Positions 16,054-32,134 of a stretch of DNA of 32,134 nucleotides are shown here, in pieces. The translations under genes and the position numbers were made by a program. Every line of letters begins with the position of its first letter. Position 1 is the stretch's first letter. The notes under the pieces were generated by a model, which was not told the origin of the DNA, did no database searches, and saw only the letters and a list, made by a program, of their open reading frames with translations. The stretch is from an uncultured Methanosarcinales archaeon. GTDB lineage: Archaea; Nanobdellota; Nanobdellia; Woesearchaeales; CAYNLP01. The DNA lies in NCBI GenBank assembly GCA_964459935.1, contig CAYWOP010000001.1, positions 1 to 32,134 of the forward strand, in the 5' to 3' direction.

Positions 16054-16842
16054 ATGGTAACTGCAGAGAACAGTAAAGACACAGCACTGATGACACTGCT
16101 CGCGATCCTAGTCATAACTATCTCCGCGGGCGTGACGCACGCGATCGGCGAACCGGGAGGTCCGGACACGCTGGAAGAACAGCGGACGGAACGGTACACG
16201 ACGCTCGACCCTAACACAACACAGGCTCAGGCCGGTAACCTTACCGAGCTCAACATGACGGCCACCTCAGCGACGAAGGGCTGGCAGGGCTTCTTCGGGA
16301 ACATTTCCGGTACGATCACATTGGAAGATAGTGACGGCGACACGTTCTACGACTGGACCACCAACGAACCGGAAGGCGAAGTCTACGCGTCCACGAACGA
16401 AACTATTCAATGGAGCACGACGCGTTGCTTCGGTTTCAATGATGACGCTTCGCTCAACACCGAGATCAATCTGTCAACTGAAGAAAATCGAACCGGGTTC
16501 AACGCGTCTGACGAGGACGGGATCGACGAAACATTCGATCGAACGGATCATCCTACGTTCTACGTTGGTACAAACAAGATATCCGGTTCCACGTGTCCCA
16601 GCACGAACCCGTACGTGAACAACCAGTCGCAGACGAGTGACTTCTACAACGTGCTCCTGGAGGACGACGGCGAAAGCCTGATCTTCACCAGCATCCTCGA
16701 GAACCGTGACCCGGCGAACGACACGGACAAGGTCGGCTACGACGGGAACACGTATGACTTCCAGATGCTGACCGCGGAGGACGAGCACACACAGGCAGCG
16801 GCAGGATCCACCACCTATTACTTCTGGGTTGAGATCGAGTAG
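16054..16842 (+). CDS. Secreted sequon-rich protein, unrecognised family, subtype A (A1)
   Basis: 262 aa. Sec-type signal peptide ALMTLLAILVITISAGVTHA. Family motifs AQAGNLTELNMT, WQGFFGNISGTITLEDSDGDTFYDW, GEVYASTNETIQW..C, HPTFYVG..I...C, DFQMLT and C-terminal YYFWVEIE. Paralogous to 20220-21020 and 21828-22547. Confidence 0.9.
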   Translation: MVTAENSKDTALMTLLAILVITISAGVTHAIGEPGGPDTLEEQRTERYTTLDPNTTQAQAGNLTELNMTATSATKGWQGFFGNISGTITLEDSDGDTFYDWTTNEPEGEVYASTNETIQWSTTRCFGFNDDASLNTEINLSTEENRTGFNASDEDGIDETFDRTDHPTFYVGTNKISGSTCPSTNPYVNNQSQTSDFYNVLLEDDGESLIFTSILENRDPANDTDKVGYDGNTYDFQMLTAEDEHTQAAAGSTTYYFWVEIE

Positions 16843-16864: not shown

Positions 16865-16885
16865 CCAAGGGGTTCATCCCCTTGG
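16865..16885 (+). promoter_or_regulatory. Perfect 8-bp stem / 5-nt loop RNA hairpin in the A1-B1 intercistronic gap
   Basis: CCAAGGGG (16865-16872), TTCAT, CCCCTTGG (16878-16885), located between the A1 stop (16842) and the B1 ATG (16906). Confidence 0.6.
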
Positions 16886-16905
16886 CGGCAGGGGGCTTTA
16901 CCCTC

Positions 16906-17640
16906 ATGAAATCGAGAACCATAGTCATAGGAAGCGTACTCGCGTTGGCCGCGTTCTTCCTCTTCCCGCTCTCCTCCGCAGCACCACAAGGAGCGAGGAT
17001 CTCGGACAACGCGACGGCAAGCCAACCCACGTCCCCACCTGACAATCGCACAGACGACGGTGGCACCATCAACACCCTCATTCTGGACAGCACGCAACAG
17101 AACAACGAGTGGAAGGCGTACGTCGGGAACGTCACCGGTAAGCTCACCCTTGATGATGGGAGCGGCAACAGCATCTACGACTGGAGCCTGGACGACACGA
17201 ACATAGAGGGCGAAGTGTACGTCAGTCGGAACACGAGCATAACTTGGGGGAATGTGAGCTGCGCGAGTCAGTCCACAATCACCGCGGAAGAAGAAGCACT
17301 AAACATCAACAGTACGGACAGTGACAGTATCAACAACACGTTCAATGCTACGAATCACTCTTCTATGCAGGTTGGCGCGGAACCAATAAGTGCGGACTCT
17401 TGCAGGGCGACCGCCACGTATGTGGATGATTCATCGCAGACTGTGAACAAGAACGCTACGTTCCAGGAGATCTTGCTTGAGGATGAGGATACGAAGCTGG
17501 TGTACTCCACGTTCATCGAGCAGGACGCGGACAGCTACATCGACTCCGCTGGCTCCACGTTCGACTTTCAACTCATTGTAGGAGAGGACAAGAGTACATC
17601 CTCACCGACACCGTACAACTTTTACCTGGAGATCACCTGA
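16906..17640 (+). CDS. Secreted sequon-rich protein, same family, subtype B (B1)
   Basis: I prefer the ATG at 16906 (MKSRTIVIGSVLALAAFFLFPLSSAAPQGA) over the TTG at 16882 in the ORF track. Motifs GGTINTLILDST, WKAYVGNVTGKLTLDDGSGNSIYDW, GEVYVSRNTSITWGNVSC, DFQLIV and C-terminal YNFYLEIT. Confidence 0.85.
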   Translation: MKSRTIVIGSVLALAAFFLFPLSSAAPQGARISDNATASQPTSPPDNRTDDGGTINTLILDSTQQNNEWKAYVGNVTGKLTLDDGSGNSIYDWSLDDTNIEGEVYVSRNTSITWGNVSCASQSTITAEEEALNINSTDSDSINNTFNATNHSSMQVGAEPISADSCRATATYVDDSSQTVNKNATFQEILLEDEDTKLVYSTFIEQDADSYIDSAGSTFDFQLIVGEDKSTSSPTPYNFYLEIT

Positions 17641-18563
17641 TGCGGGGTTCGAGCATGCTCTGGATGACCGTAGCCCTGGGAATAGCGACAGTCGCACTGC
17701 TGTTGCTCTCTTCAATCGGCTTAGGAGCGAGCGTCGGGCCAAACTATCGCAACGTCAGTTCTGACACCACTGTGAATATCACGAATTCCGCACCGGAGAT
17801 CGTCAACATAACTGTCGATCCGCAGTCCATCACGCTCAACGCCGGTTCGTCGACGCGCGTCTACGTGAACACGACGATACGGGACTTCGACGGGCAGAAC
17901 GATATCGACACCGTACAGGGGACGTTCTTCGATCAATCGGTCTCGGTCAGTAACGATAGCGACGATAACAACTTTCACTACTCGGATAACGACTGCAATA
18001 AGACGAACGGCGATGGAGACGTCGCGAACTATTCCTGCGCGTTCGATCTCGAATATTATGCGAACAACGGTACATGGGAGGGGAACGTGACGGTCAACGA
18101 TACACAGAACTTCAACGACTCGGAGAACGAGACCGGAGATGTACAGGAACTACGGGCACTGAACGTGACACAACTCCTCGACTATGGTAATCTACAAGTG
18201 GGTGAGGCCAATACGAATCCCGTCACTGCGAACGTTACGAACTTCGGGAACGTAGATATCAACACCTCTGTTTATGGCTACGGCAACGAGACGAACGACG
18301 GACTAGCGATGGTGTGCGACGAGCGGAACATCACCATCGGTTACGAACGGTTCTCGGAGAACTCGTCTAAGACATGGGCGGACATGAACAACCTCACAAC
18401 TGATCCCCAGGACATCCCCGGCTTTTCTGTACTGCAGAGGACGAACGACACCGCGATCACCGATTCACGAAACTCGACCTATTGGAAACTGAAGGTTCCT
18501 GTGGACGAGAACCCTGGCGGTCGCTGCAACGGAACGGTCGTGTTCCAAGCTGAGTTCACTTAA
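17640..18563 (+). CDS. Secreted sequon-rich two-domain protein, unrecognised family C (C1)
   Basis: 307 aa. The ATG overlaps the B1 stop (TGATG). Signal peptide LWMTVALGIATVALLLLSSIGLGA. Motifs NITNSAPEIVNITV, RDFDGQNDIDTV, ANYSCAFDLEYYANNGTW, ALNVTQLLDYGNLQVG, NVTNFGNVDINTSVYGYGN, DGLAMVC and C-terminal CNGTVVFQAEFT. About half of positions are identical to 23277-24185 by eye. Confidence 0.9.
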   Translation: MRGSSMLWMTVALGIATVALLLLSSIGLGASVGPNYRNVSSDTTVNITNSAPEIVNITVDPQSITLNAGSSTRVYVNTTIRDFDGQNDIDTVQGTFFDQSVSVSNDSDDNNFHYSDNDCNKTNGDGDVANYSCAFDLEYYANNGTWEGNVTVNDTQNFNDSENETGDVQELRALNVTQLLDYGNLQVGEANTNPVTANVTNFGNVDINTSVYGYGNETNDGLAMVCDERNITIGYERFSENSSKTWADMNNLTTDPQDIPGFSVLQRTNDTAITDSRNSTYWKLKVPVDENPGGRCNGTVVFQAEFT

Positions 18564-18805: not shown

Positions 18806-19300
18806 ATGGAGTACTCGACGACCATCGGCGACGTAACACAGCACGATTCAGAGCACCACGTTTCTCTTCACGTAGAGAAAAGCGCCGCAGCGACGGCACA
18901 GGAAACCGGTATCGGGCGAGAGGATCGATCCGGAGAAACACGCATACCGCTTGCAGTCTTCAGAAGCGATGCCGGACCGCTCCAAGCACTCGTCACATAC
19001 CTGCACGAAGAACAAGGATATGGATTCACCGAGATAGGTGAACTGCTCGACCGCGACCCTCGCACGATCTGGAGCGCATACGACCAGTGCGATGCATCCG
19101 CGGCGGATAGCGGGGAGGAGGACGTTCGGCTCACAGCGCTGGTAAGAGATGAGTTGACGATACTCCAGTCCTTAGTGTTCCATCTCAAAGCGACCAAAAC
19201 CTATCAAGAGATTGCAGATCTGCTCGACAAGCACTACCAGACCGTCTGGACCGTGCATCGACGAGCGGAGGAGAAGCTGGAGGTGGTGGATGATGCGTAG
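18806..19300 (+). CDS. Tandem helix-turn-helix regulator (two sigma-70 region 4 / LuxR-GerE-like HTH units)
   Basis: 164 aa, no signal peptide. Unit 1: LQALVTYLHEEQGYGFTEIGELLDRDPRTIWSAY. Unit 2: LTILQSLVFHLKATKTYQEIADLLDKHYQTVWTVHRRAEEKL. Family assignment is by motif only. Confidence 0.7.
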   Translation: MEYSTTIGDVTQHDSEHHVSLHVEKSAAATAQETGIGREDRSGETRIPLAVFRSDAGPLQALVTYLHEEQGYGFTEIGELLDRDPRTIWSAYDQCDASAADSGEEDVRLTALVRDELTILQSLVFHLKATKTYQEIADLLDKHYQTVWTVHRRAEEKLEVVDDA

Positions 19301-20006
19301 CCGCGTCCTCGTGCTGGTAAGTCTCCTTGCTCTTTCCTTCTGCATCACGGGGGTGGGTGCGGCACCGTCGGGGGCGAGCATCGTCTCCAATACAACGGAG
19401 GAGGCACCGGTCGAAGCCGCGGACAGTCTCAAGACCGCTGGCGGAACATTCACCACGCTCCTCCTGAACGGGACCGGGCAGACCGAGGCGTGGAAGGCCT
19501 ACGTCGGGAACGTGACAGGTAAGCTGACACTGCAGGACGCGAACGAGTACAGTATCTATGACTGGACGCTGAGCACGATATCCGGCGAAGTCTTTGCCAC
19601 GAGGAACGACAGCATCGACTGGGGCAACGTGGAATGCGCAAACCGTACGACGATCGAACAGACAGATACTGATCTCAACGTGAGCTCATCCGAGGAGATA
19701 AGCATCAACCGCACGTTCAACGAGTCGGTACACGAGAGCTTCTTCGTTGGGGGAACGCAGATCCAGCAGTCCACGTGTCCGGCCATCGCCACCTACGTGA
19801 ACGACTCGGCGCAGGAACAGGATACGAACGCGTCCTTCCAGGAACCCTTGCTACAGGATGACAGCGATCTGATCTACACGACACTGCTCGAAGAAGACGC
19901 GCCAAGCTACCATCCCAACAAGACGTTCGACTTCCAGATGATCGTCCCGGAGAACCGCCGGAACAGTGCGAATGAACGGTACTACTTCTACACTGAACTC
20001 ACGTAG
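19290..20006 (+). CDS. Secreted sequon-rich protein, subtype B (B2)
   Basis: I prefer the start MMRSRVLVLVSLLALSFCITGVGA at 19290, with GGAGGTGGTGG immediately upstream. It overlaps the regulator stop by 11 nt. Motifs GGTFTTLLLNGT, WKAYVGNVTGKLTLQD, GEVFATRNDSIDWGNVEC, DFQMIV and C-terminal YYFYTELT. Confidence 0.85.
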   Translation: MMRSRVLVLVSLLALSFCITGVGAAPSGASIVSNTTEEAPVEAADSLKTAGGTFTTLLLNGTGQTEAWKAYVGNVTGKLTLQDANEYSIYDWTLSTISGEVFATRNDSIDWGNVECANRTTIEQTDTDLNVSSSEEISINRTFNESVHESFFVGGTQIQQSTCPAIATYVNDSAQEQDTNASFQEPLLQDDSDLIYTTLLEEDAPSYHPNKTFDFQMIVPENRRNSANERYYFYTELT

Positions 20007-20219: not shown

Positions 20220-21020
20220 GTGCGCCTGGAATCCTCCTCCTTCGATGGCTCGTCATACCAAGTGACCAGCAGTGAACACAGGATAAGTGACGCGGAGGAG
20301 AAGGATGCTTGGATAACTGCAGCTAGCTGCATCCTTCTCCTCCTACTTCTCTTTTCTACACGCGGTGGGGCCGTTTCCGGTCCTGACAGCATCCAAGAGG
20401 GCGGGAGCGAACGAGCGAACCTGTCCAATGCTGGGGCTACGGTCGACGCCCAAGCTGGCAACGTGACCGCCCTCAACATCGACGCGACAGCGATCACCGA
20501 AGCATGGCAGGGCTACTACGGGAATATCACCGGTTCCATCACTTTAGAGGATGCAAGCGGTGACGTGTTCTATAACTGGAGCTCGTTCAATTCGCTCACG
20601 GGCGAGGTATACGCGTCCCGGAACGAGAGCATCACGTGGGACGGTATCAACTGCACGAACAGTTCCGAAGTGCAGGACGAAAATAGCTACCTGGGCAAGT
20701 CCGGCGCTGAGTCCGACAGCGTGAACCAGACCTTCGATGATACCACGCATCCGAGCTTTCTCGTCGGGACTACACGGATCGAACAGGACACATGCTATAG
20801 CACCAACACGTTCTCCGGGGGGTCGCAGAACAGTGACCGGTTCCACGAAGTCCTGCTCTCTGACAATGCCAGCAAACTGGTGTACACGACCATCATCGAT
20901 GAGGATCAGGTGGGATTCGACAACGGGCAGTACGACTTCCAGATGCTCGTCGGCGAGAACGGCAACGAGACGCAGGAGTCCAGTACCACTACCTACAATT
21001 TCTACATCGAACTCACATGA
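20220..21020 (+). CDS. Secreted sequon-rich protein, subtype A (A2), monocistronic
   Basis: 266 aa from GTG (no in-frame ATG lies before the hydrophobic segment). Unusually long ~30-aa N-region, then ITAASCILLLLLLFSTRGGA. Motifs AQAGNVTALNIDAT, WQGYYGNITGSITLEDASGDVFYNW, GEVYASRNESITW..INC, DFQMLVGENGNET and C-terminal YNFYIELT. The start codon is uncertain. Confidence 0.8.
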   Translation: MRLESSSFDGSSYQVTSSEHRISDAEEKDAWITAASCILLLLLLFSTRGGAVSGPDSIQEGGSERANLSNAGATVDAQAGNVTALNIDATAITEAWQGYYGNITGSITLEDASGDVFYNWSSFNSLTGEVYASRNESITWDGINCTNSSEVQDENSYLGKSGAESDSVNQTFDDTTHPSFLVGTTRIEQDTCYSTNTFSGGSQNSDRFHEVLLSDNASKLVYTTIIDEDQVGFDNGQYDFQMLVGENGNETQESSTTTYNFYIELT

Positions 21021-21199: not shown

Positions 21200-21835
21200 G
21201 TGGACGAAGAAACGCTCTTCACAGCGAGTAAGTGGACGATTCTCGAACAACTGCAGGACGATCCCCAGAGTCCGAAACACCTCGCTGAAGAACTCGGCAC
21301 CTCCGTGGCCAACATTAGCCAGCAACTCCGGCTCCTCGAGATGGCGGACCTCGTCGAGAGCGAACGCGTCTCGAACAGGGAGAAGGGACAGCCACGTGTC
21401 CTGTACTCCCTGGCCGGAGACCACTCTTACCTGATCAGCGCGGCGAACGGCTTCGTCGAGAAGCAGTTCCACGAACTCAGCGACCGGAACAAAGCGATCC
21501 TCCGCATCTGGTTATCCGACATGAATCCGGAAGACCGGTACTTACTCGAAAAATCGTTCTGGCTCGTCGAACCGCACATCGATGATATAACAGGACTCTA
21601 TCTCGACACGACGAAGCGTCAGTTAGAGCTGACAGTCGTCACGGTCTCAGACTCGCTGGAAGACGAGCTCGACGATCTTAATATCGAAGACAGGAATGAA
21701 CGCGAAGCGACCATCACGATCACCACCGTGTCCGTCCAGTCCTTCCTGGACGAGGACGACACGGAACGGTACTACGCGATCTACGACACACGAGAGTTGC
21801 GGCAGAAACGACACAGGGAGGGAAACGATGAGTAA
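21200..21835 (+). CDS. ArsR/TrmB-like winged-helix transcriptional regulator with an uncharacterised C-terminal domain
   Basis: 211 aa from GTG. wHTH: KWTILEQLQDDPQSPKHLAEELGTSVANISQQLRLLEMADLVESERV...GQPRVLYSL. The stop overlaps the A3 start (ATGAGTAA). Confidence 0.8.
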   Translation: MDEETLFTASKWTILEQLQDDPQSPKHLAEELGTSVANISQQLRLLEMADLVESERVSNREKGQPRVLYSLAGDHSYLISAANGFVEKQFHELSDRNKAILRIWLSDMNPEDRYLLEKSFWLVEPHIDDITGLYLDTTKRQLELTVVTVSDSLEDELDDLNIEDRNEREATITITTVSVQSFLDEDDTERYYAIYDTRELRQKRHREGNDE

Positions 21836-22547
21836 CAACACCACGGTTTTGACAGTTCTCGCACTGGCAGTAGCACTACTCTCGCTCCAGGCACTCGCTG
21901 TTCCTGGCGGCCCGGACAGCATCAGCGTGGGGTCCAGCGAACGGGCGAACCTGGACAACACGACGAAGTCGACGCAAGCGCAAGCGGGGAACGTGACAGC
22001 ATTGAACATCTCGCAGACCACGATCACCGACGCGTGGCAAGGTTACTACGGGAATATAACGGGTCAGATCACGTTGGAAGATGCCGGCGGTGACGTGTTC
22101 TACAACTGGAGCGGACTGAACACGCTCAGCGGTGAGGTCTACGCGTCTCGCAACACCAGTATAACATGGGGGCAGATCAACTGCACCAACCAGACAGGTA
22201 TCAACGAAGAAGACAGCGTACTCGGGAAGAACGGAGCCGAAGCGGACAGCGTCAACCAGACGTTCAACACGCAGACACACCCGAGCTTCCAGGTCGGCAG
22301 TCGCTCGGTCGGAACGGATTCGTGCTTCAGCACCAACGCGTACTCGGGGAACGGACAGGACACCAGCCTGTGGCACCAGATCCTCCTCTCCGACAATGCA
22401 AGCAAGCGCGTCTACACCACGCTAATCAACGACACCTCGACCGCGTACGACGGGTCAACGAGAGACTTCCAACTGCTCGTCGGCGAGAACGGCAACGAGA
22501 CCAGCCAGGAATCGACGCAGTACAACTTCTACATCGAGTTGAGCTAA
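21828..22547 (+). CDS. Secreted sequon-rich protein, subtype A (A3)
   Basis: I prefer the ATG at 21828 (MSNNTTVLTVLALAVALLSLQALA), with AGGGAGGG upstream. Motifs AQAGNVTALNISQT, WQGYYGNITGQITLEDAGGDVFYNW, GEVYASRNTSITWGQINC, DFQLLVGENGNET and C-terminal YNFYIELS. Confidence 0.88.
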   Translation: MSNNTTVLTVLALAVALLSLQALAVPGGPDSISVGSSERANLDNTTKSTQAQAGNVTALNISQTTITDAWQGYYGNITGQITLEDAGGDVFYNWSGLNTLSGEVYASRNTSITWGQINCTNQTGINEEDSVLGKNGAEADSVNQTFNTQTHPSFQVGSRSVGTDSCFSTNAYSGNGQDTSLWHQILLSDNASKRVYTTLINDTSTAYDGSTRDFQLLVGENGNETSQESTQYNFYIELS

Positions 22548-22548
22548 G

Positions 22549-23274
22549 ATGAATAGAGAGAGTACCTCCAGAGAAGCACCGCTGGCCGTCCTCCTAGCGG
22601 TGCTTCTCTCCTTCTCTGTACTGGTGTACGCGGAGCCGCAAGGAGCCAGTATCAACGACAACAGCACGGACACAGGACCCACGTTCACTGCGGATAACCG
22701 CACGGACGATGGTGGAACGATCAACACGCTGACCCTCGACAGCACCGGGCAGAATCTGGACTGGAAGGCGTATATCGGGAACGTGACGGGCTCGCTCACA
22801 CTCGACGACAGTAACGAGAACACGATCTACGACTGGCAGAACCTCGACAGTGTTTCAGGAGAAGCGTACGTCGCACGAAACAACACGATCGACTGGGGAG
22901 GTGTCAGCTGCGCGAGTTCAAGTACCATCTCCTCGGAACAGAGTGACCTGGGCTTCGACCCTGGTGAAAGCGACAATATCAACTTCACCTTCAACTACTC
23001 GCAACACCCGCAGATGACCGTAGGGTCGAAGGACATCCCGCAGGATAACTGCAGCGCCACGTACATGTACAACGATAATACATCGCAGAGCGCTTCAAGT
23101 AGCAACAACTTTACTACGATACTCCTTGAAGACTCCAATAGCAATCTGGTCTACGGGACCTTCCTCGAAGATAAGAAAACGGGCTTCGACGGCAAGGCGT
23201 ACGATTTCCAAACGATCGTTCCGGATGAGGAAACCACCGCCACACCGTACTACTTTTACCTCGAACTCAGCTGA
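22549..23274 (+). CDS. Secreted sequon-rich protein, subtype B (B3)
   Basis: 241 aa, starting 1 nt after the A3 stop. Signal peptide PLAVLLAVLLSFSVLVYA. Motifs GGTINTLTLDST, WKAYIGNVTGSLTLDD, GEAYVARNNTIDWGGVSC, DFQTIV and C-terminal YYFYLELS. Confidence 0.9.
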   Translation: MNRESTSREAPLAVLLAVLLSFSVLVYAEPQGASINDNSTDTGPTFTADNRTDDGGTINTLTLDSTGQNLDWKAYIGNVTGSLTLDDSNENTIYDWQNLDSVSGEAYVARNNTIDWGGVSCASSSTISSEQSDLGFDPGESDNINFTFNYSQHPQMTVGSKDIPQDNCSATYMYNDNTSQSASSSNNFTTILLEDSNSNLVYGTFLEDKKTGFDGKAYDFQTIVPDEETTATPYYFYLELS

Positions 23275-23276
23275 CG

Positions 23277-24185
23277 ATGCGTGAAGTACTGGTCTCCCTG
23301 ACACTGGCGCTCGCGGGAGCACTCGTATTCCTCTCCGCAGTGGGTCAGGGGGCCACGGGGGACGCGGTGAACTTCCGGAACGTCTCCGTGGATACAACGG
23401 TGAACATCACGAACTCCTTTCCTGAAGTCACGGATATACGACTGAACGATCCGGTCACGCTCGAGGCGGGTACTACAAAACTGGTCGAATGCAATGTTAC
23501 GGTGCGTGACTTCGACGGGCAGAACGATATCGACAACGTCAACGCAACGTTCTTCGACCCGGACAACACATCGCTCAACGCACCCAATGACAACAATAAT
23601 CACTACGAAAACGCGAGCTGCACAAAGACGAGCGGGAGCGGGAACGTCGCGAACTACACGTGCGGCTTCAACGTCGAATACTACGCGAACAACGCGACGT
23701 GGAACTGCACATCCTTCGCAGAAGATACACAGAATGCAACGGGGAACCTCTCTAATAGTACGACCGTGGAATCACTGCTCGCGTTGAACGTGACACAGCT
23801 GATCGACTACGGCGATATACCGGTGGGGAACATCAGCAGCTCGCAGGAAGCGAACGTGACAAACTTCGGCAACGTGAACATCAACGTCAGCGTTCGCGGG
23901 TACGGCAACCAGAGCGGAGACGGCCTCGCCATGGTCTGCGAAGAGGGAAATATCAGCGTGGAGAACGAACGGTTCGACCTGAACAGCTCGGCCGCGTTCA
24001 ACGAGATGACCAAGTTGAACGACACGAAGAAGATCATCTCCAACTTCACCGTCGATCGAAGGGTCAACGATTCCATCATCAACAACACACGAAACGGTAC
24101 GTACTGGAAACTGCGCGTACCATCGAGCAGTAACCCCAGCGGTGTTTGCAATGGAACCGTCGTGTTCCAAGCGGAGTCCCCATAG
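23277..24185 (+). CDS. Secreted sequon-rich two-domain protein, family C (C2)
   Basis: 302 aa, starting 2 nt after the B3 stop. Signal peptide VLVSLTLALAGALVFLSAVGQGA. Motifs NITNSFPEVTDIRL, RDFDGQNDIDNV, ANYTCGFNVEYYANNATW, ALNVTQLIDYGDIPVG, NVTNFGNVNINVSVRGYGN, DGLAMVC and CNGTVVFQAESP. Confidence 0.9.
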   Translation: MREVLVSLTLALAGALVFLSAVGQGATGDAVNFRNVSVDTTVNITNSFPEVTDIRLNDPVTLEAGTTKLVECNVTVRDFDGQNDIDNVNATFFDPDNTSLNAPNDNNNHYENASCTKTSGSGNVANYTCGFNVEYYANNATWNCTSFAEDTQNATGNLSNSTTVESLLALNVTQLIDYGDIPVGNISSSQEANVTNFGNVNINVSVRGYGNQSGDGLAMVCEEGNISVENERFDLNSSAAFNEMTKLNDTKKIISNFTVDRRVNDSIINNTRNGTYWKLRVPSSSNPSGVCNGTVVFQAESP

Positions 24186-24192
24186 GAGGTGA

Positions 24193-24273
24193 ATGATGCA
24201 ACCACACAACGCTGACAAGGAAGCGAGGAACGAGATCGAACGCCTCGCCCGCGAGTGCGTCATGTACAATTAA
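24193..24273 (+). CDS. Candidate 26-aa micro-ORF with a strong Shine-Dalgarno sequence, directly after C2
   Basis: AGGAGGTGA at 24184-24192, then ATGATG. It encodes MMQPHNADKEARNEIERLARECVMYN. Its stop shares a TTAA with the convergent 1111-aa gene stop. No homology is recognisable. Confidence 0.25.
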   Translation: MMQPHNADKEARNEIERLARECVMYN

Positions 24274-27200
24274 GGCGGGTCGGCCTGGAAGACCACCGTC
24301 CCGTTGCACGTATTACCCCACTGCAACGAGGGTTCCAGGCTTGGTATGAAGAGTTGCCAGAACGTCGAGTTCTCATTCTGCTGCGTCGTCGCCAGTGATT
24401 CCACGGATAGACCGGAATCTTCATACGTACTTGAGAGGTTCTCCTTATCCGTGAAGGCCACGCCTGGCGTCAGCGCGTACCGCTCGTTCTCGATCGAGAT
24501 ATTGTTATTCGGACACTCCATCGCAAAGCCCGAACCGGACTGAGAGTCATTCCCTCCATAACCGAGCACAGACAGGTTGAAACGCGTGTTCCCGATATTA
24601 GTGACATTCACCTTCTGCTCCGCAGACGTCGCGTTTTGCTGCACTTCACCGTAATCGATGACGGATTCCGACACGTTCAACGCGAACAACGGATTGACCG
24701 TTACACCGTCCGTGTCGCTGTCCGTACTCTCGCCGTCTGTCGTCTCAGCCCTGCACGTCCATGTGTTATTCTCCGCGTAGTACGACACGCTCACGTTGCA
24801 GTGATACACCGCGGAGTCTCCAGCGGCTTGTTCTTGCGAGCAGGATTCGTTCGTGTAGTGGTTTGTATCGTCGTCGGGAGCGTCTGCGGAAACGCTATTG
24901 GAGAAGAATGTCGCGTTCACCAGGTTGATGTCACCGGCGCCTTCGCTGTCCTCAACGGACACGTTACAGAGTACCGTACGCCGGGTCCCGGCGTTCAGGT
25001 CGATCTCGTTGTCAGGAGAGCTGATATCATCGTCCACGGTCACTCCGGTCACGACCGGTTGTCCCTCCGCAATCCCCCCACCAGTGCTCCCGTTGAAGTA
25101 CGTGCAGAGCGGTTGGAACCCTGTCTTGAACTCCAACTGGGTGAAGTCGATGAACGATGTCTGTGCACCTCCGGTGTTCTTCGTCAGTTGGTACCGCAGG
25201 GAGACCTGGTTCGCCTCGGTCCTGTTCGTGATCTCATCTGACAGATCACACCGGTCCGTCACGTCAGTCCCGCTCGTATCCAGGTCGGCACAGGGTACCT
25301 CTTGGTATCCGGAGCCGTTGTACCATAATAGGGTGGGGCTATCTAGGTCAGCGTCCTCCGCGTGTTCCAACGTCCAGTTCACCTCCTGTATCTGAATACC
25401 CTCCGCGAAGCTGTTCGTGTAGTTGATCTCCCAGTAAAATACTTGTCCGTTTCCGCCGGACGCGGTGATCGTATCATCAACATCATCCGATACGTTGATC
25501 GCGGAGAGGTCTACACTGCTCCCATCGGTGGATTTCTTTCCCCTGCTTGGTGACGTGTTCGATCGGGTCGTGTTGATCTCGGAGATGTTGAAGACGGCGG
25601 TGTCGTTCAACTGGGAGTTCGTGTTATCGGTAGCGTTGACCGTGTAGATACCGTTGCACGTGTCCGTCGTGTTCCAGAACGTAGCGAAATCACCGGTGTT
25701 GTTCGTGGAAACGTTCTCTGGGAAGCTCGGCCCGATATCACCCGTGTCGTTATCGTAGATCGCGTACTCCACCGTGTCGGAGCGGGTGAAGTTGAGTCCC
25801 GAGATGTTCACGTCCTCGTTCCTTGCGTAGAGGAACTTTTCCGTCAACACAGTTGCGTTCCGCTCCGTGATATTGAAGGAAGCGGTCGCGTTGAGCCGTG
25901 GATAGGTCTGATCGGTCGCGGTCACGTTCGTCCTGCCGAGCGGCGCTGCGTAGGAGAGGTTGCGCACCGTCGTGAACGCACCGTTCGAGTCAGTCTCAGT
26001 TGTGAACTTGTCGGTCGTGTCGTCGCTGAAGGTGAACAGTACCTCTACGGTGGAGTTGGGGCTGTAGTCCGTCCCGGAGACGGTGACGGCTGCTCCCTGC
26101 GGATACCTTTCTTTATCGGTGGAGACTGTGGTCGGGGGTAGTTCGACCGTGAACGAGGCGGTGTCGTTCTTTGAAGCGTCGCTGGTCTGGTACGTGATGA
26201 GGTTGTACGTGCCTGTGGGATCGCTGTAGTTGAGCAAAAGCGTATCATTGGCAACGCCGTTCGGGTCCGTCGTTTCGGTGTTCACTGTGGTAGTGCCGTC
26301 GCTGTACGTGTAGTTGAACGTGAGTTCCGTGGACGCGTCAAAGTTCTCAGCCGTCGCAGATACCGCATCGCCGAGTTCATACGTGTTCGCATCGGTGGTG
26401 ACGATAGGGTCTGACACGTTTATGGTGATGTTCCTACGCACGCTCGCGTTTTCAAACCCATTCGAGTCTGTACAATTCCCACCCCATGTATGGTTGCCAT
26501 TGGTCAGTGACGTGGTGAACTCGAGCGTGGTATCCTCCGCAGGGCTTGTGTTCGTCGCGCGGGGGGAGTCGTCGATGATGAGCTCGCACGAGTCAAGTCC
26601 GGTTTGTGCGTCGCTCGCGTTGAAGCTGAACGTGACGTCGCTGGTCTGCGACACGGTGTCGTTCGCTGGTTGTTCCAGGTTGATAGCGGGCGGTTTCGTG
26701 TCGATCGTGATATTATATGTTGAACTGTTTCCTTGATTACTGTTCCCGTCGAGGCAGGTAACCTGCCACGTGTGCGGACCGTCCGGTATATCGGAGAGGT
26801 TGAACTCGTTCTGCGTCCCGTTCACCGGGTCGTTGTCCGTCGCGTTCTCCTGGTCGTCGAAGCGCAGCGTGCACGACGAGAGGTTCCTGTTATCTTCCGG
26901 TGTGTAGGTGAACGTGACGTTGCCGTCGAGGTCGAACGTGTCGTTCGCCGGGCTGTCGAGGGTGACGTTCGGCGGTGTCTGGTCCGGTAACTGGTAGGTC
27001 ACGTTGTACCTGAGCACGTCCCACGATATCGTGGCCGGACCGCCCTGTTGCGTGGATTTTGACACTTCGGACTTGATCTTGGCGCGCGTTCCGGACGAGC
27101 CGAAGAAGTTCCCGCACGTCCAGTTCTCAGTGGACGTTACCTCGGTGCAGGTCACGCCGGGTTCCGTCGTGGTTCCCGGACAGGAAGCCGTGACCGCGTT

Positions 27201-27605
27201 CCATGTCCCGTCCCCGTCGTTGTCCACGCTGATATCACAGTCGTCCGTATCTGCCGAGTCAGCCCACCACTCATAGCAGACATACACTCTTTGCACGGAG
27301 GTGCAGTTCGCTATCGAACTGTTGTAATCCGTGGTACGGACGCCCGCGTAGCCGTTCTGATCGGCGTCCCACGTTTCCTCTCCGCCGTCGTCACACCGAA
27401 GCAAATCGTTTCCCGTGCCCGATCCACACGCCGCGGGGTATGTCCCATCGCAGGCACTCCCGAACGAGCCTTTCGTCGCCCTGTCTTCGGCACTGCATGC
27501 TTGGATGCCGACGCGCTCCACGGTTGTATTCGCCGCGATCACGAGGATCACAGCTACGGATAGGACGAAGGCTAGCAGTATCCTTACCGGGTCGATCCGC
27601 CTCAT
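24270..27605 (-). CDS. Giant secreted or N-terminally anchored surface protein (1111 aa) with Cys-rich, Ig-like and beta-sandwich repeats and a C-terminal C-family module
   Basis: N-terminal MRRIDPVRILLAFVLSVAVILVIAA. Two Ig-like modules with paired Cys (VTLDSPANDT...SCTLRFDD...WQVTCLDGNSN; INLEQPANDT...SCELIIDD...WGGNCTDSNGF). The last 264 aa (24270-25064) align with C1/C2: DINLVNATFF, NHYTNESC, YHCNVSVSYYAENNTW, ALNVSESVIDYGEV, NVTNIGNTRFNLSVLGYGG, GFAMEC, CNGTVVFQADPP. Confidence 0.9.
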   Translation of the reverse strand: MRRIDPVRILLAFVLSVAVILVIAANTTVERVGIQACSAEDRATKGSFGSACDGTYPAACGSGTGNDLLRCDDGGEETWDADQNGYAGVRTTDYNSSIANCTSVQRVYVCYEWWADSADTDDCDISVDNDGDGTWNAVTASCPGTTTEPGVTCTEVTSTENWTCGNFFGSSGTRAKIKSEVSKSTQQGGPATISWDVLRYNVTYQLPDQTPPNVTLDSPANDTFDLDGNVTFTYTPEDNRNLSSCTLRFDDQENATDNDPVNGTQNEFNLSDIPDGPHTWQVTCLDGNSNQGNSSTYNITIDTKPPAINLEQPANDTVSQTSDVTFSFNASDAQTGLDSCELIIDDSPRATNTSPAEDTTLEFTTSLTNGNHTWGGNCTDSNGFENASVRRNITINVSDPIVTTDANTYELGDAVSATAENFDASTELTFNYTYSDGTTTVNTETTDPNGVANDTLLLNYSDPTGTYNLITYQTSDASKNDTASFTVELPPTTVSTDKERYPQGAAVTVSGTDYSPNSTVEVLFTFSDDTTDKFTTETDSNGAFTTVRNLSYAAPLGRTNVTATDQTYPRLNATASFNITERNATVLTEKFLYARNEDVNISGLNFTRSDTVEYAIYDNDTGDIGPSFPENVSTNNTGDFATFWNTTDTCNGIYTVNATDNTNSQLNDTAVFNISEINTTRSNTSPSRGKKSTDGSSVDLSAINVSDDVDDTITASGGNGQVFYWEINYTNSFAEGIQIQEVNWTLEHAEDADLDSPTLLWYNGSGYQEVPCADLDTSGTDVTDRCDLSDEITNRTEANQVSLRYQLTKNTGGAQTSFIDFTQLEFKTGFQPLCTYFNGSTGGGIAEGQPVVTGVTVDDDISSPDNEIDLNAGTRRTVLCNVSVEDSEGAGDINLVNATFFSNSVSADAPDDDTNHYTNESCSQEQAAGDSAVYHCNVSVSYYAENNTWTCRAETTDGESTDSDTDGVTVNPLFALNVSESVIDYGEVQQNATSAEQKVNVTNIGNTRFNLSVLGYGGNDSQSGSGFAMECPNNNISIENERYALTPGVAFTDKENLSSTYEDSGLSVESLATTQQNENSTFWQLFIPSLEPSLQWGNTCNGTVVFQADPP

Positions 27606-30600
27606 CGTAGTTCGTAGTAGAACGTGACTTGGTCTTCGCTGTCGCTGTTCAACGTCGCTAGGGGGCGTGGGAACTTGACCTCGTAGTCGTAGACGCCGTA
27701 CTGCCCCTGCGTCTCCTGGTTGATCTTCGTGATGAACGCGAGGTCTTGCGTTCCGTTATACTGAGAGTTCCCGTCGCTCGTGTCCCAGAGGATGCCGGTC
27801 TGGAAGGACGAGGTATTCGTACTGTTGATGACCGGTACGTTCTCCACCGGCTCGCCGAAGACCCGGAACGTTCTCGTGTCCTTGGGCGTGCCCGAGTCGG
27901 TCCACGTGACCGTCAGATTATCTTGGTGGTCAGTCATGTTCAACGCCCCGTCCGCCTCCTGGAAGTCCGTAGTCGCGGTGTCATTCGTCGTGTTCCTGGT
28001 CAGCGCTTGGACCTGGGTGAAATCGACGTCGCGGTCGCTCTCCGTTACTACTATATTTCCTGTGGTGTTGCGGGTCAAGGTGAAGTTGATGAGCGTGTCC
28101 GTTTCGTTGTTCCCTAAGGTCCACCGCCCACTGAGGTTGCCGTAGTTCACCTGGTAGCTCGGCACGTCGAACGTCGTGTTCGCTTCGTTATTATCTTCTC
28201 GGGTCTCGTTGACCGTTCCGTTGGTCGAGAACGGCGTGTCGGCCCTCACAAAAACATTGCGCGGTCCGGGTCCGGGGACGGTCCACGAGACGTTCACGCT
28301 CCTGTTCTCTCCAACGTTCAGTCTGTCGATCGTTTGTGCCGTATCGATCTGTGTCCCGCCCGTGTCGGGGTCGCCCTCGTAGAACTCCACGGTGAACGAT
28401 GTGGTCGCGTTCACGTTGCCCTGGTTCGTCACCAGGCTTGAGACGTTGATCGTCTCGCCCTCGCTCGCGTCGGACTCGTTCACGCTGAAATTGATGAAAC
28501 TCCGGTTGACGAAGAGGTCCGGGTTGGTGATGTTCACGGTGAAGTTCGCATCGGCGAACGCACTGTTGTTCGCCACGTCCGTGCATTCAACGTTCCACCG
28601 GTATGTGCCCTGGCCGAGGTCTGCGGTGAAGTTGTTCGTCTGGTCGTTGTCCGGGTTTGTGTCGTTCTGTGTGGCTTGGAACACGCTGTTGTTATCCCGG
28701 TAGAACGTGCAGTAGTCCAGGTTCGCATCACTGGGCGTGTACTCGAACGTGACCTGTCCTACGGGTTTGAACGCGCCGTCAGCTGGTGATTCGAGCGTGA
28801 CCAACGGATCCGTCGTGTCCTCTTCGTACGTGACGGTGGCGCCGAAGAAGTCCGTGCCGTAGTTGATGCTGTTCGCCGTGCCGGTGTAGCGGAACCGTGA
28901 TCGCATCTGGAGTTCATCGTTGAAAGCACTGCGGTTGGGCAGGCCGTTCCCCGATTCAGTAAAGTTACATTTGACCGTGTCCGGTGCTGTGGTGCTGGAC
29001 TGGGTGAACGTCTGACTGCAGGCTTCGAGCCAGTTCCCGCTGGACTCGTTCAACCACTGGATGCTGAGGAATCCTTCGTTCGTGTCCTGGTACTTCACGT
29101 GCGTGACGTTCGCTGAGAGGATAGTCGAACCTGGTGGTATGGAGGTGTTTGTCATGTTGAAGTACACGTCGTTGTAGTCTTGGTTCTTGTCGAATCTGCC
29201 GTGCTCTTCATAGTTTCCATCGCTCTCGTTCACGTTCCCTGCTGTACAGTCGCCTTGGGGGTCGCTGCACTGGAATGGGACTATATTTGGTGTGAACCGG
29301 GTGATGTTCACCGTGATGTTCCTGGTCTCCGACGCTCCGGTGTTCCCGGCCGGGTCGGTACAGTTCACCCGCCACGTGTACTCCCCGTCGTCTACGCCGT
29401 TGAGTGAGAACCCTTGGTCTGTGTCCTTTGTGATCGTATCGTCGGTTTGGTTTTCCTGCCCGTCGAAGATGAGCGCGCACCGGTCGATGTCGCTCGTGTC
29501 GCTCACGTTATACGTGAAGCTGAGATCGCCGTCCGTGTCCGTGGTGTCGTTCGCCGGGCTTATGGCTGTCACGTTGGGCGTGACCGTATCATTCACAAAG
29601 ATAGTATGTGTTTCGTACGTGGAGGTGAAGTTCTGGTTCCCGCTGTAGGTGAAGTTCACCGTCACGTTGCCGGGAGCGTCAATGGAGAGGTTCGCCTGGA
29701 CCGGTGAAGTTTCATTTGTAAGGAGTGTTCCGTCGCGGTACAGGCTCGCGTTGCCCGTGCCCCTGAGGAGGTACCCGGTGGCGTTGACGATGGTGCTCTC
29801 GTTCACCGTTATATTACCGTCGGTCCCGTTGAGTGTGAGGTTGACCGACGCGCTCGCTTTGTCGATGGTGTAGGTCTGCAGCGGTGTCCTGTTCTCGTTG
29901 TTCTGTGTATCGTTCGCGATCGACCGCCAGCTGTAGTTCCCCGCGGCGAGTCCGGAGTCGTTGTAAAAGTAGACGGAACCGTCGTTGCCCGTTGCGGTGT
30001 CGTTCCGGAACGTGCCGGTGAAGTTGTGTTCGAACAGGACCGTGTCCACTTCCCCATTATCCGTCCACGTCGTGTTGAACTGGTAGGTCCGAGTGGCGTT
30101 GTACGTGGCGGGGCTTTGCGGAGCTGCTGTTATATTATCATACACGGGGGGTGTTGAGTCGATCTTCGTGGTGAAGTTGTACTCTTGCGAGGTGTTCGTG
30201 TTCCCCGCGGCGTCGGTGCTGTTGACCTTGTAATAGTAGGTCGTGTTGGGTTCCAGACCGGTGAGTAGGATGCTGTGGTTCTTGACCAGTGTTCCATCGG
30301 TCACGCTCTCGGTGTACGTTCCGGGACTGGTGCCGTACCGTACGCCGCTGTCCGCGTCCTCGTCCGTTTTCCACGTGATGCTGGCGGAGCTGTCCTCGAC
30401 GTTGTCCGCGGAGATATTACTGAGTGCGGGCGGTGTTGTATCCGTGGTGGTATCCGTCTTTGCCGTGTCGTTGACTTCCGTGTCATTTACATTGCCCTGG
30501 TCGTCGGCGGTCAGCACGGTCAGTGTGTAGTTCGTATCGCTGGACAGGCTGGTCACGTTGTAATAGTCTTGCGTGGTGTTCGTCAAAAAGTTTCCATCGA

Positions 30601-32134
30601 GGTAGAGTTCGGAGTGGTTGAAATCATCATCTGAAGGATTGGTCCAGTTCCACAGGATCCAGGATGTACCTGTTTTGGACTCGTTGAGGTCCGAAACGGT
30701 CGCTGGTGGGATGGTATCGTTGACGTACACGTACAGCGTTTCGTTCGAACCGGTGTAGTTCTCGTTTCCCGTGAAGTTCGCGGTGACGGGTTGGTACCCG
30801 TACGTGTCGAAGCGGGTGATGTTCGTCACCGGGGCTGGGCCTTCCTCCAGGAACGTCCCGTTCTTGTACAGTGAAATATTTCCAGAACCGGTCTCGAACG
30901 TTCCCGTGATATTGACCGTGCCGTTGTTATTGACGGTGAAGTTGCTACTGGACCCGTTGAGGAGCAGAGTTACATTAGACGCTGCTTTGTTCACTTCTAA
31001 CGTCGTGAACGTACTGCTGTTCTGGTTCCCGCTCGTATCGTTCGCGTTGCTCCGCCACTGATACGTGCCTGCGGCGATGCCGGTATAGTTGTAGAAGTTC
31101 ACGGCGCTGTCGTTGCCCGTGGCGGTGAAGTTCTGGAACGTGCCTGTGAAGTTGTGTTCGAACAGGACCGTGTCCACCTGTTCGTTGTCCGTCCAGGTCG
31201 TGTTGAACTGATAGGTGCGGTCCGTTTCGTACGTTACCGGACTACTGGGAGATTGGCTGATGTTGTCCCACGCCGGCGCTTCGGTATCTTGCACGGAGAA
31301 GTTGATGATGGTGTACGCGTAGTCGATTGCCGCGCTTGCGGGTCGTGCTCCGTCGTCCGTGCTGATCTCCACGCTGAAGTCGTCGTAGAGCGCGTTATCC
31401 GGCGAGGTACTGTCGAAGTGCGATGTGCAGTTGTACGAGAGTGTATCGGTGGTGACCGGGGCGGTCTTGCTGAACGTTGGCCCGCCATACGTAAGGGTGC
31501 TCCAGTTCCCATACTGCACGGTCCACGTGTTCCCATCGTCGTCGAAGCCGCGTACGTAGAACGTGCACTGCTGCACGTCCTCGATGAGTTCCGACTCGTT
31601 CTCGAAACTGATATCCAACGGCTCCGTCTGTTTGTTGAACTCTTTATCCGTTCCGCCGCTGCTGTTGATCGCGTCCACCTCTGCATCGCTGCAGAACGTG
31701 CCGTCGAACGGTTCGTAGCAGTCGTCGGCGTCGTGAGTGCTCTCCGCGAAGATCGGGTCCTCCGGGGTGAGCGTGAAGTTGTACGTCTCTCCCGGTGTGA
31801 TATCTTTCAACTTCGTCCACGCACCGGTGCAGGTGCGTCGTGTATAGTTATAGGATTTGCACGTCCACAGCTCTGTACCGGTGGCTGTCGCTCTCACCGT
31901 CGCGTTCGTGAAGCCAAGGTTGGTCGGGTCGAGCGCGTAGGCCTGCAGCCATCGCTTCGGCCCGGGCCGGTCTGGTGAGACGTCCTCGTAGCGCAGGTCT
32001 ACGCTGTTGTTCCGCACCTCGAGACCGTGGAACGTGATATCGTCGACGTTCCGCTGCACGTCCACGTGCACGTCGTACTTTCCCTCCTGGAACTCGCCCG
32101 TAGTGGGATGACCGGTGTCGCTCCGTGTGACTGA
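27602..32134 (-). CDS. Giant surface protein (>1510 aa, 5' end beyond the window) with FN3, CARDB and Ig-like repeats and a C-terminal A/B-like module
   Basis: The frame stays open from 32071 to the window edge, so the GTG-derived M in the ORF track is probably not the true start. Two FN3 domains (TSWILWNWTNPSDDDF...; ASITWKTDEDADSGVRYGTSPGTY...NTTYYYKVNSTDAAGN). CARDB domain (GETINVSSLVTNQGNVNATTSFTVEFYEGD...NVGENRSVNVSW). Paired-Cys Ig modules. The stop overlaps the ATG of the 1111-aa gene (ATGA). The last 184 aa (27602-28156) carry YGNLSGRWTLGN...YDYEV...VTFYYELR. Confidence 0.9.
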   Translation of the reverse strand, partial: SVTRSDTGHPTTGEFQEGKYDVHVDVQRNVDDITFHGLEVRNNSVDLRYEDVSPDRPGPKRWLQAYALDPTNLGFTNATVRATATGTELWTCKSYNYTRRTCTGAWTKLKDITPGETYNFTLTPEDPIFAESTHDADDCYEPFDGTFCSDAEVDAINSSGGTDKEFNKQTEPLDISFENESELIEDVQQCTFYVRGFDDDGNTWTVQYGNWSTLTYGGPTFSKTAPVTTDTLSYNCTSHFDSTSPDNALYDDFSVEISTDDGARPASAAIDYAYTIINFSVQDTEAPAWDNISQSPSSPVTYETDRTYQFNTTWTDNEQVDTVLFEHNFTGTFQNFTATGNDSAVNFYNYTGIAAGTYQWRSNANDTSGNQNSSTFTTLEVNKAASNVTLLLNGSSSNFTVNNNGTVNITGTFETGSGNISLYKNGTFLEEGPAPVTNITRFDTYGYQPVTANFTGNENYTGSNETLYVYVNDTIPPATVSDLNESKTGTSWILWNWTNPSDDDFNHSELYLDGNFLTNTTQDYYNVTSLSSDTNYTLTVLTADDQGNVNDTEVNDTAKTDTTTDTTPPALSNISADNVEDSSASITWKTDEDADSGVRYGTSPGTYTESVTDGTLVKNHSILLTGLEPNTTYYYKVNSTDAAGNTNTSQEYNFTTKIDSTPPVYDNITAAPQSPATYNATRTYQFNTTWTDNGEVDTVLFEHNFTGTFRNDTATGNDGSVYFYNDSGLAAGNYSWRSIANDTQNNENRTPLQTYTIDKASASVNLTLNGTDGNITVNESTIVNATGYLLRGTGNASLYRDGTLLTNETSPVQANLSIDAPGNVTVNFTYSGNQNFTSTYETHTIFVNDTVTPNVTAISPANDTTDTDGDLSFTYNVSDTSDIDRCALIFDGQENQTDDTITKDTDQGFSLNGVDDGEYTWRVNCTDPAGNTGASETRNITVNITRFTPNIVPFQCSDPQGDCTAGNVNESDGNYEEHGRFDKNQDYNDVYFNMTNTSIPPGSTILSANVTHVKYQDTNEGFLSIQWLNESSGNWLEACSQTFTQSSTTAPDTVKCNFTESGNGLPNRSAFNDELQMRSRFRYTGTANSINYGTDFFGATVTYEEDTTDPLVTLESPADGAFKPVGQVTFEYTPSDANLDYCTFYRDNNSVFQATQNDTNPDNDQTNNFTADLGQGTYRWNVECTDVANNSAFADANFTVNITNPDLFVNRSFINFSVNESDASEGETINVSSLVTNQGNVNATTSFTVEFYEGDPDTGGTQIDTAQTIDRLNVGENRSVNVSWTVPGPGPRNVFVRADTPFSTNGTVNETREDNNEANTTFDVPSYQVNYGNLSGRWTLGNNETDTLINFTLTRNTTGNIVVTESDRDVDFTQVQALTRNTTNDTATTDFQEADGALNMTDHQDNLTVTWTDSGTPKDTRTFRVFGEPVENVPVINSTNTSSFQTGILWDTSDGNSQYNGTQDLAFITKINQETQGQYGVYDYEVKFPRPLATLNSDSEDQVTFYYELR
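29585..30151 (-). repeat. Internal duplicated ~190-aa module, copy 2, of the giant ORF
   Basis: PPVYDNITAAPQSPATYNATRTYQFNTTWTDNGEVDTVLFEHNFTGTF...TIFVNDT. It is offset from copy 1 by exactly 1128 nt (376 codons), with the two FN3 domains in between. Confidence 0.85.
30713..31279 (-). repeat. Internal duplicated ~190-aa module, copy 1, of the giant ORF
   Basis: APAWDNISQSPSSPVTYETDRTYQFNTTWTDNEQVDTVLFEHNFTGTF...YVYVNDT. The 30-nt stretch gaagttgtgttcgaacaggaccgtgtccac at 31148-31177 is identical to 30020-30049. Confidence 0.85.

Follow-up and report, generated by a model that had tools for sequence, protein, structure and literature searches.

Gene content of the locus

The window analysed here is a stretch of 32,134 nucleotides that makes up the whole of contig CAYWOP010000001.1 (assembly GCA_964459935.1), deposited as an uncultured Methanosarcinales archaeon and placed by GTDB in the Woesearchaeales. 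It carries eight small genes on the plus strand, which encode secreted proteins of three families designated A, B and C, and two giant genes, G1 and G2, which run convergently from the minus strand and whose products end in modules related to the same small proteins. The window also encodes gyrB and ribosomal protein S3Ae, and homologs of its surface genes carry the lineage names Woesearchaeota, Nanoarchaeota/Nanoarchaeia and Pacearchaeota, which marks the source as a Woesearchaeota-type member of the DPANN archaea. A TGATG overlap and 1-2-nt gaps separate the A, B and C genes within cassettes, and the stop codon of G1 overlaps the start codon of G2 in an ATGA, as the initial annotation had read it, which suggests that the two giant genes are translationally coupled. 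The small genes, the giant genes and their terminal features are as follows.

16054..16842, plus strand: A1, small secreted protein, A family
16882..17640, plus strand: B1, small secreted protein, B family; its stop overlaps the C1 start (TGATG)
17640..18563, plus strand: C1, small secreted protein, C family, with the N-terminal extension NYRNVSSDTTVNITN
19212..20006, plus strand: B2, small B-family protein
20220..21020, plus strand: A2, small A-family protein
21696..22547, plus strand: A3, small A-family protein
22549..23274, plus strand: B3, small B-family protein
23277..24185, plus strand: C3, small C-family protein
24270..27605, minus strand: G2, C-type giant surface protein of 1111 amino acids (aa)
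24270..25064, minus strand: C module of G2 (residues ~850-1111), two Ig-like domains, related to small C proteins by BLASTP
27602..27605, minus strand: ATGA overlap of the G1 stop (TGA) and the G2 start (ATG), read from the sequence
27602..32134, minus strand: G1, D-type giant surface protein, 1510 codons, open at the contig end
27602..28156, minus strand: D module of G1 (last 184 aa), a divergent domain of the A/B superfamily found by hhalign
28178..28522, minus strand: CARDB domain of G1 (Pfam PF07705), directly upstream of the D module

For two of the small genes the start of the longest open reading frame (ORF) is probably wrong. A3 more likely begins with the ATG at 21828, where its signal peptide starts and where it overlaps the end of the preceding gene, and the signal peptide of B2 begins at an internal MMRSRV... 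sequence.

G2 terminates in a C-family module

G2 consists of an N-terminal signal or anchor sequence, Cys-rich regions and immunoglobulin (Ig) domains of the Big_7, Big_13 and MG2-like types, followed by the C module. Residues 850-1111 of G2 align with residues 49-302 of C3 in BLASTP with an E value of 3e-53 and 110 of 268 positions identical (41%), and the same C-terminus matches C1 with an E value of 3e-39. Against the hidden Markov model (HMM) of the C family, the module scores 407 bits. The match spans both Ig-like domains of the family together with its terminal CNGT[VI][VI]F.AE motif, and all six cysteines of the C module are kept in G2 in a three-way alignment with C1 and C3. The initial annotation had recognised a C-family module at this position from shared motifs, and these searches confirm it; the motifs NATFF, NHY..SC, YYA.NNTW, ALNV, DYG, NVTN[FI]GN, GYG, AM.C and CNGTVVFQA are all present in the alignment. 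Orthologs of G2, 1054-1086 aa long, were found in three further loci (L017, L055 and L071, numbered within the set of loci described below).

The AlphaFold2 model of C3 is confident (mean predicted local distance difference test score, pLDDT, 93.4) and shows two Ig-like beta-sandwiches. The PDB matches that Foldseek gave for this model included RbmA, Fab light chains, transglutaminase, CsuE and FimH, with template modelling (TM) scores of 0.2-0.3. Membership of C in the RbmA, antibody, transglutaminase, FimH or CsuE families was rejected, the resemblance being that of generic tandem Ig-like domains. Because C3 finds only such generic fold matches, the similarity between G2 and the small C proteins is family-specific; the C fold is generic, yet what G2 shares with it is not simply a widespread Ig-like domain.

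G1 terminates in a divergent A/B-superfamily module

The passenger region of G1 contains fn3/PAP-N, Big_13 and Big_7 Ig-like domains. Orthologs of 1704-1764 aa with 42-45% identity occur in L010, L012 and L071, and compared with the 1510 open codons of the window they indicate that ~200-250 aa of G1 are missing. The initial annotation had also noted a weaker A/B signature in the last 184 aa of G1. BLASTP gave no alignment between the G1 C-terminus and A or B proteins, and hhalign restricted to the six A/B sequences of the window returned non-significant E values (0.0074-0.037), its best placement along the whole of G1 being the end-to-end C-terminal alignment. A search with the A/B profile yielded 121 homologs of 231-295 aa, from which a 78-sequence A/B alignment was built, and the last 232 aa of G1 used as a query yielded four homologs and hence a 5-sequence profile of the G1 module. 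Two of these four are complete proteins of 324 and 334 aa that consist of a signal peptide, a CARDB domain and the G1-type module, hereafter the D module.

With these deeper profiles, hhalign related the 78-sequence A/B profile to the 5-sequence D profile with a probability of 97.2-97.5% and E values of 3e-11 to 5e-12 over 160-162 columns, extending from W-x-x-Y-GN-[LV]-[ST]-G to the terminal YYFxxEL. The signature that had been proposed by eye is thus significant although BLASTP is blind to it, and the three motif correspondences of G1, YGNLSGRWTLGN, YDYEV and VTFYYELR, are all aligned to their A/B counterparts. Against an observed score of 81.8, none of 30 column shuffles exceeded 19.2, reversal of the alignment gave 15.4, and the C family scored 22.5. 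A compositional artefact of N/S/T-rich sequence is ruled out by the shuffles and the reversal. Across the fetched loci, the A/B HMM recovered 12 of the 16 D-type ORFs at E<1e-3 (best 2.4e-12, G1 2.5e-4), and no unrelated ORF among 2462 fell below E=1.

The D module lacks the first ~45 residues of mature A/B proteins, the alignment beginning at W72 of B3, and it has no cysteines at the columns of the conserved disulfide pair (C121/C168 of B3). It therefore forms a separate divergent branch and is not an ordinary A or B protein. The CARDB domain in front of it was assigned at E 9.3e-12 (45.5 bits against a cutoff of 22.7) in the segment 28157-28564 of the window, and CARDB directly precedes the D module in 9/9 other D proteins tested.

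The AlphaFold2 model of B3 (pLDDT 90.4) is a beta-sandwich with a short helical insert. Its best Foldseek matches had E values of 0.69 in the PDB and 0.05 in BFVD, which gives no fold assignment for A, B or D. No Pfam or NCBIfam model matches the A, B, C or D modules, and PDB sequence-profile searches gave no match at E<=1 for A/B, C and D and nothing credible for two neighbouring proteins, w563 and w218. In the literature on surface proteins, pili and giant proteins of Woesearchaeota and other DPANN archaea, we found no description of the A, B, C or D families.

Modules lie at the extreme C-terminus across DPANN genomes

The C profile was used to fetch 78 DPANN loci from species-representative genomes (L numbers), and all of their ORFs were scanned with three HMMs. 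The module ends within 9 aa of the stop codon in 111/111 C, 16/16 D and 153/155 A/B occurrences. Modules of the C family terminate proteins of 382-2427 aa in ~30 loci, a 602-aa protein in L062 is closed by a canonical A/B module, and C-family sequences retain 43-56% identity across Woesearchaeota. Beyond these loci, a D-profile scan of 1.84 billion representative proteins matched 783 protein clusters, 574 of them at E<1e-30. Among the 150 best matches, the D match ends within 5 residues of the C-terminus in 149, and these proteins are between about 150 and 6061 aa long, with ~60 longer than 1000 aa and six longer than 5000 aa. A module at the extreme C-terminus is a simple rule by which these surface proteins can be recognised. 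The sole exceptions in the fetched loci are two proteins of 1215-1247 aa (L007 1602-5342 and L068 2604-6248, both on the plus strand), each with a weak N-terminal A/B-like domain of 30-36 bits.

The gene order is likewise conserved. In dozens of loci the genes again stand in the order A>B>C, only a few bases apart, and the pattern of the whole window (A B C, B, A, A B C) was found again in L005 and L009. Giants with a D module adjoin cassettes in L005, L010, L012, L015, L023, L032, L034, L053, L069 and L072, and a small C gene is followed by a C-type giant in 8 loci. The expectation that large module-bearing surface proteins co-occur with small A/B/C genes is supported by D-type giants beside cassettes in at least 10 independent loci. 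In L071, a D-type protein of 1764 aa and a C-type protein of 1054 aa, separated by a 4-nt gap, are the orthologs of G1 and G2 (42% and 35% identity). Tandem D-type giants with a 1-nt overlap or short gaps were also observed (L069 3-4180, L012 14480-20928 and L071 2-6267), which suggests arrays of alternative passenger proteins.

Secretion signals and glycosylation sequons

All A, B, C and giant proteins carry Sec-type signal peptides, and those of A, B and C look cleavable, with small residues at positions -3 and -1. The cassette and giant proteins contain 3.7-8.3 N-x-S/T sequons per 100 aa (7.0 in G1 and 5.7 in G2), compared with 0-1.1 in the cytoplasmic proteins of the window. Given the signal peptides and this sequon density, the proteins are therefore probably extracellular glycoproteins. 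They terminate in a polar beta-strand (…FYYELR, …VVFQADPP), and no C-terminal membrane anchor or known sorting motif was seen in the cassette or giant proteins.

Several known classes were considered and rejected. Type IV pilin-like proteins do not fit, since the sequences show no class III signal peptide and have instead a Sec-type signal with an A-x-A-like site after the hydrophobic core. TasA/peptidase_M73, AbpA and thread subunits gave no Pfam, PDB sequence (E<=1) or fold match. C-terminal sorting signals of the PGF-CTERM, LPXTG or type IX secretion system C-terminal domain (T9SS CTD) kinds were dismissed for want of a hydrophobic tail and of any Pfam or NCBIfam match, and chaperone-usher membership because no protein in the window matches a pilin, chaperone or usher model of Pfam or NCBIfam.

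An N-terminal extension distinguishes free C proteins from fused ones

Small C proteins carry a segment of ~15 residues directly after the signal peptide, N-Y-R-N-V-S-V-D-T-T-V-N-I-T-N, whose residues alternate in a beta-strand pattern and are near-invariant (N43 in 65/65, T45 in 63/65 and V42 in 61/65 sequences). In the AlphaFold2 model of C3, where the extension spans residues 31-45, residues 23-49 are coil, with pLDDT values of 57-70 at residues 21-40 and 91 at residues 41-50. The extension is recognisable in essentially all of the 76 small C ORFs, and all 31 fused C proteins, among them G2, lack it. The absence of the A/B N-terminal segment from the D module parallels this absence of the extension from C-type giants. 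Its core motif occurs 37 times in 512,789 ORF residues, 30 times in small C proteins, 7 times in the w218 family and nowhere else. Members of the w218 family (about 220 aa) have a transmembrane helix, then ITGxVVTTVNITQ, the motif shared with the small C extension, and then a conserved domain. The carriers of the motif in this family are the window protein (12098-12754, minus strand) and proteins in L016, L018, L019, L022, L029 and L041. From this sequence motif, w218 is a candidate membrane-proximal partner of the C proteins.

Conserved neighbouring genes

Other genes of interest in the window are as follows.

3300-6212, minus strand: 970-aa protein whose N-terminal half is a long, acidic coiled coil, with a hydrophobic segment next and a large domain at the C-terminus
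7156-9951, minus strand: w931, with a signal peptide, Ig/fn3 domains, a transmembrane helix and a cytosolic coiled coil
10243-12096, minus strand: w617, with a signal peptide, 29 Cys, a Gly-rich linker, transmembrane segments and a coiled coil
12098..12754, minus strand: w218, conserved neighbour in 28 loci, with an N-terminal transmembrane helix followed by ITGEVATTVNVS
13029..14720, minus strand: w563, conserved neighbour in 33 loci (~50% identity), with a signal peptide and a C-terminal transmembrane segment
14794-15861, plus strand: w355, very acidic small cytoplasmic protein, 14 loci
18806-19300, plus strand: w164, small cytoplasmic protein, 20 loci
21200..21835, plus strand: helix-turn-helix (HTH) protein, ArsR/MarR-like, upstream of the third cassette, with homologs in 44 fetched loci

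The neighbours w563, w218, w617, w931, w355, w164 and the HTH protein are conserved in 14-44 loci, and they include candidates for anchors or assembly factors. The type I membrane protein w563 has weak CWB2-like and Ig-like regions and, in its orthologs, a cytosolic zinc ribbon; it lies directly downstream of C in L001 (10946-12823), L003 and L032 and might anchor a surface structure in the membrane. w931 and w617 are conserved in 29-30 loci, and w931 directly precedes a small C gene and a G2 ortholog in L017 and L055. One small cytoplasmic protein precedes each cassette (HTH in 44 loci, w164 in 20 and w355 in 14, the last mostly between a D-type giant and the first A gene), which suggests cassette-specific regulation. 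In L019, HTH and A seem to be read through as one ORF of 438 aa, which may be artefactual or reflect a fusion. For the C-terminal domain of the 970-aa protein there is no Pfam match, and the protein has no homolog in 80 fetched loci. The acidic proteome of the window suggests a saline habitat.

Modules as probable docking units of a surface structure

The reading that we favour, with somewhat better than even confidence, treats A, B/D and C as modules for assembly or docking in a conserved, heavily N-glycosylated, heteromeric surface structure of Woesearchaeota-type DPANN archaea; the giant proteins would join this structure through the same modules. Tightly coupled A>B>C operons would yield nearly equal amounts of the free A, B and C proteins, which would leave the cell by the Sec pathway and build up the body of the structure. 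Exported likewise, G1 (passenger, CARDB and D) and G2 (passenger and C module) would be incorporated through their last domain, a module that they have in common with a body subunit, so that the variable Ig/fn3-rich passengers would be displayed, probably as adhesins towards hosts or substrates. In the preferred form of this model, the extension of small C proteins may serve as an inter-subunit strand, as in donor-strand exchange. Giants that lack the extension would occupy only a terminal (distal or capping) position, as FimH or PapG do, and w218, with its strand motif right after the transmembrane helix, would be a candidate for the proximal partner. It is the lack of N-terminal extensions in the giants that favours the terminal position, in agreement with the tip-adhesin analogy of the initial annotation. 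An extension present in free C and absent from giants, a difference also seen between chaperone-usher pilins and their tip adhesins, adds one new piece of support to that analogy. The homologies, the strict C-terminal position, the synteny and the distribution of the extension are observed; extracellular location, assembly, polarity and adhesion are inferred. The coupled, equimolar operons fit a heteromeric protomer, in a fibre or a two-dimensional lattice, at least as well as a pilus built of one major subunit.

Several observations weigh against this reading. Mutual contacts among A, B, C and D are predicted from sequence and genomic context. The AlphaFold2 monomers of B and C are complete, confident folds, and their secondary-structure listings show no missing strand; donor-strand complementation is therefore not indicated structurally. 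Equimolar A:B:C operons are atypical of systems with major and minor pilins, and the extension includes two conserved N-x-S/T sequons, so that glycosylation or processing, and not an interface, could account for its conservation. No anchor or assembly machinery was found by homology, the conserved neighbours being without known homologs. In the window, the giant genes run towards the cassette from the opposite strand and are not co-transcribed with it. The order of a D-like followed by a C-like terminus, in which the initial annotation had seen a mirror of the small genes, holds in the window and in L071 but is not general, a D-type giant being followed by a C-type giant in only 2 of the 13 loci with a visible downstream gene. 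Of the interpretation first put forward, the shared-module structural claim and the co-occurrence with cassettes are supported, whereas the mirrored order is kept only occasionally.

The more far-reaching form of the assembly model is that in Woesearchaeota and related DPANN archaea A, B and C polymerise through N-terminal strands into a new class of surface organelle, on which hundreds of different giants of up to ~6000 aa sit terminally through C or CARDB+D and which would serve these episymbionts for attachment, unrelated by homology to the pili of bacteria and archaea. It is put forward tentatively, as a proposal with a substantial chance of being right but more likely to be wrong.

Alternative explanations

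A two-dimensional lattice, in which A-B-C heterotrimers tile the surface as an S-layer (surface layer) anchored by, for example, w563, and G1 and G2 replace A/B or C positions, appears unlikely, yet it is the alternative that fares best. The equimolar, translationally coupled A>B>C genes, the high conservation of the C family (43-56% identity) and the dense glycosylation sequons would all suit such a layer, as would the position of w563, a transmembrane protein with a weak CWB2-like region, directly after C in several loci; the literature shows no S-layer protein for the lineage. However, up to eight paralogous subunits per superlocus exceed in complexity the known one- and two-component S-layers, and the lattice offers no obvious role for an extension that is found in free subunits and missing from fusions.

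That same extension, absent from all fusions, is left unexplained by a pure envelope anchor, in which C and CARDB+D would bind a glycan, a lipid or an unrelated protein of the envelope, in the manner of SLH, CWB2 or T9SS CTDs, and the small proteins would be minimal and non-polymerising. One C-terminal module common to hundreds of passengers is the signature of anchoring or sorting domains, D is always paired with CARDB, and the top fold matches of B, weak and non-significant, are lectin-like or jelly-roll proteins. This explanation nevertheless accounts neither for the conserved A>B>C operons and paralogous sets nor for the strong conservation of module-only proteins. The modules, at 185-265 aa and two to three domains, are far larger than sorting signals, and they end without a C-terminal hydrophobic tail, PGF-CTERM or LPXTG-like motif; we regard pure anchoring as quite improbable.

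The modules might instead be distal functional domains, with an uncleaved N-terminal anchor holding the protein and the C-terminal module pointing outward as a ligand or host binder, the small proteins being short binders. The hydrophobic N-terminal segment of G2 could be such an anchor, and the strict C-terminal position would put the module farthest from the membrane. However, the module is the most conserved part of these proteins and the passengers the most variable, the opposite of host-binding tips under diversifying selection, and the signal peptides of A, B and C are ordinary and cleavable-looking; we consider this arrangement very unlikely. An evolutionary relic, in which domain shuffling within a lineage-specific pool left giants and cassettes functionally uncoupled, would be in keeping with DPANN surface proteins as mosaics of Ig-like domains, but it is strongly disfavoured, to the point of being barely credible, by the positional rule (in at least 280 occurrences modules are never internal, and never N-terminal bar the two weak exceptions) and by the synteny, linkage to cassettes recurring in many genomes, and it runs counter to the retention of all six C-module cysteines in G2.

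Significance and comparison with known systems

DPANN archaea are generally regarded as host-attached, and to our knowledge nothing is known of the envelope and attachment machinery of Woesearchaeota. The present analysis defines three unannotated families and a fourth module, CARDB+D, which marks at least 783 clusters of surface proteins, so that an adhesin repertoire of uncultured DPANN genomes could be catalogued. It also yields a testable model of assembly, with free subunits that carry an N-terminal strand, giants that lack it, and w218 and w563 as candidate membrane partners. The A/B/D fold, which has no match in the PDB or BFVD, is a defined target for structural biology.

Chaperone-usher adhesins such as FimH, PapG and CsuE resemble the present system in several respects. 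In both, a large N-terminal passenger precedes a C-terminal domain that is homologous to small subunits, which polymerise in the pili and would do so here; an N-terminal extension marks the free subunits and is missing from the large protein; and one locus encodes several paralogous subunits. FimH and CsuE are also among the generic fold matches of the C model. They differ in that there is no sequence homology and the fold resemblance is that of generic tandem Ig-like domains (TM score 0.3), that the archaeon has no chaperone, usher or outer membrane, that the folds predicted here look complete, as judged from monomer models only, with A, B and C genes equimolar, and that the A/B/D fold is without any PDB match.

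The threads of Sulfolobus and the AbpA/TasA-like bundling pili of Pyrobaculum are donor-strand filaments that polymerise outside the cell independently of an ATPase. They share with the present proteins Sec-secreted, glycosylated, beta-rich subunits encoded in small operons, and polymerisation of the A, B and C proteins would add to the likeness. However, three distinct families are involved here, with no Pfam match to TasA/peptidase_M73 and no PDB sequence or fold match, and we know of no description of fusion to giant passengers for the archaeal donor-strand filaments.

In the CWB2/Cwp family of Clostridioides difficile, which includes SlpA, and in proteins with SLH domains or T9SS CTDs, the modules either attach to wall polymers or serve as sorting signals that are cleaved off. 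Here as there, passengers of diverse size bear one terminal module, which the main envelope protein has too. Unlike in those families, no wall polymer is known here, the modules are multi-domain units of 185-265 aa that also occur as stand-alone, operon-encoded proteins, and the weak CWB2 signal lies only in the neighbour w563 and not in the modules. RbmA, a scaffold of the Vibrio cholerae biofilm matrix, is the best Foldseek match of the C model (E 3e-5) and is likewise a secreted protein of tandem fn3/Ig-like domains, but with TM scores of 0.23-0.30 and 10% identity it shares a generic pair of beta-sandwiches, and its operon context and lineage are unrelated. Collectively, a shared terminal module that links small subunits to large surface proteins is a principle familiar from pili and wall-anchored families, and in these archaea it is realised with non-homologous protein families.

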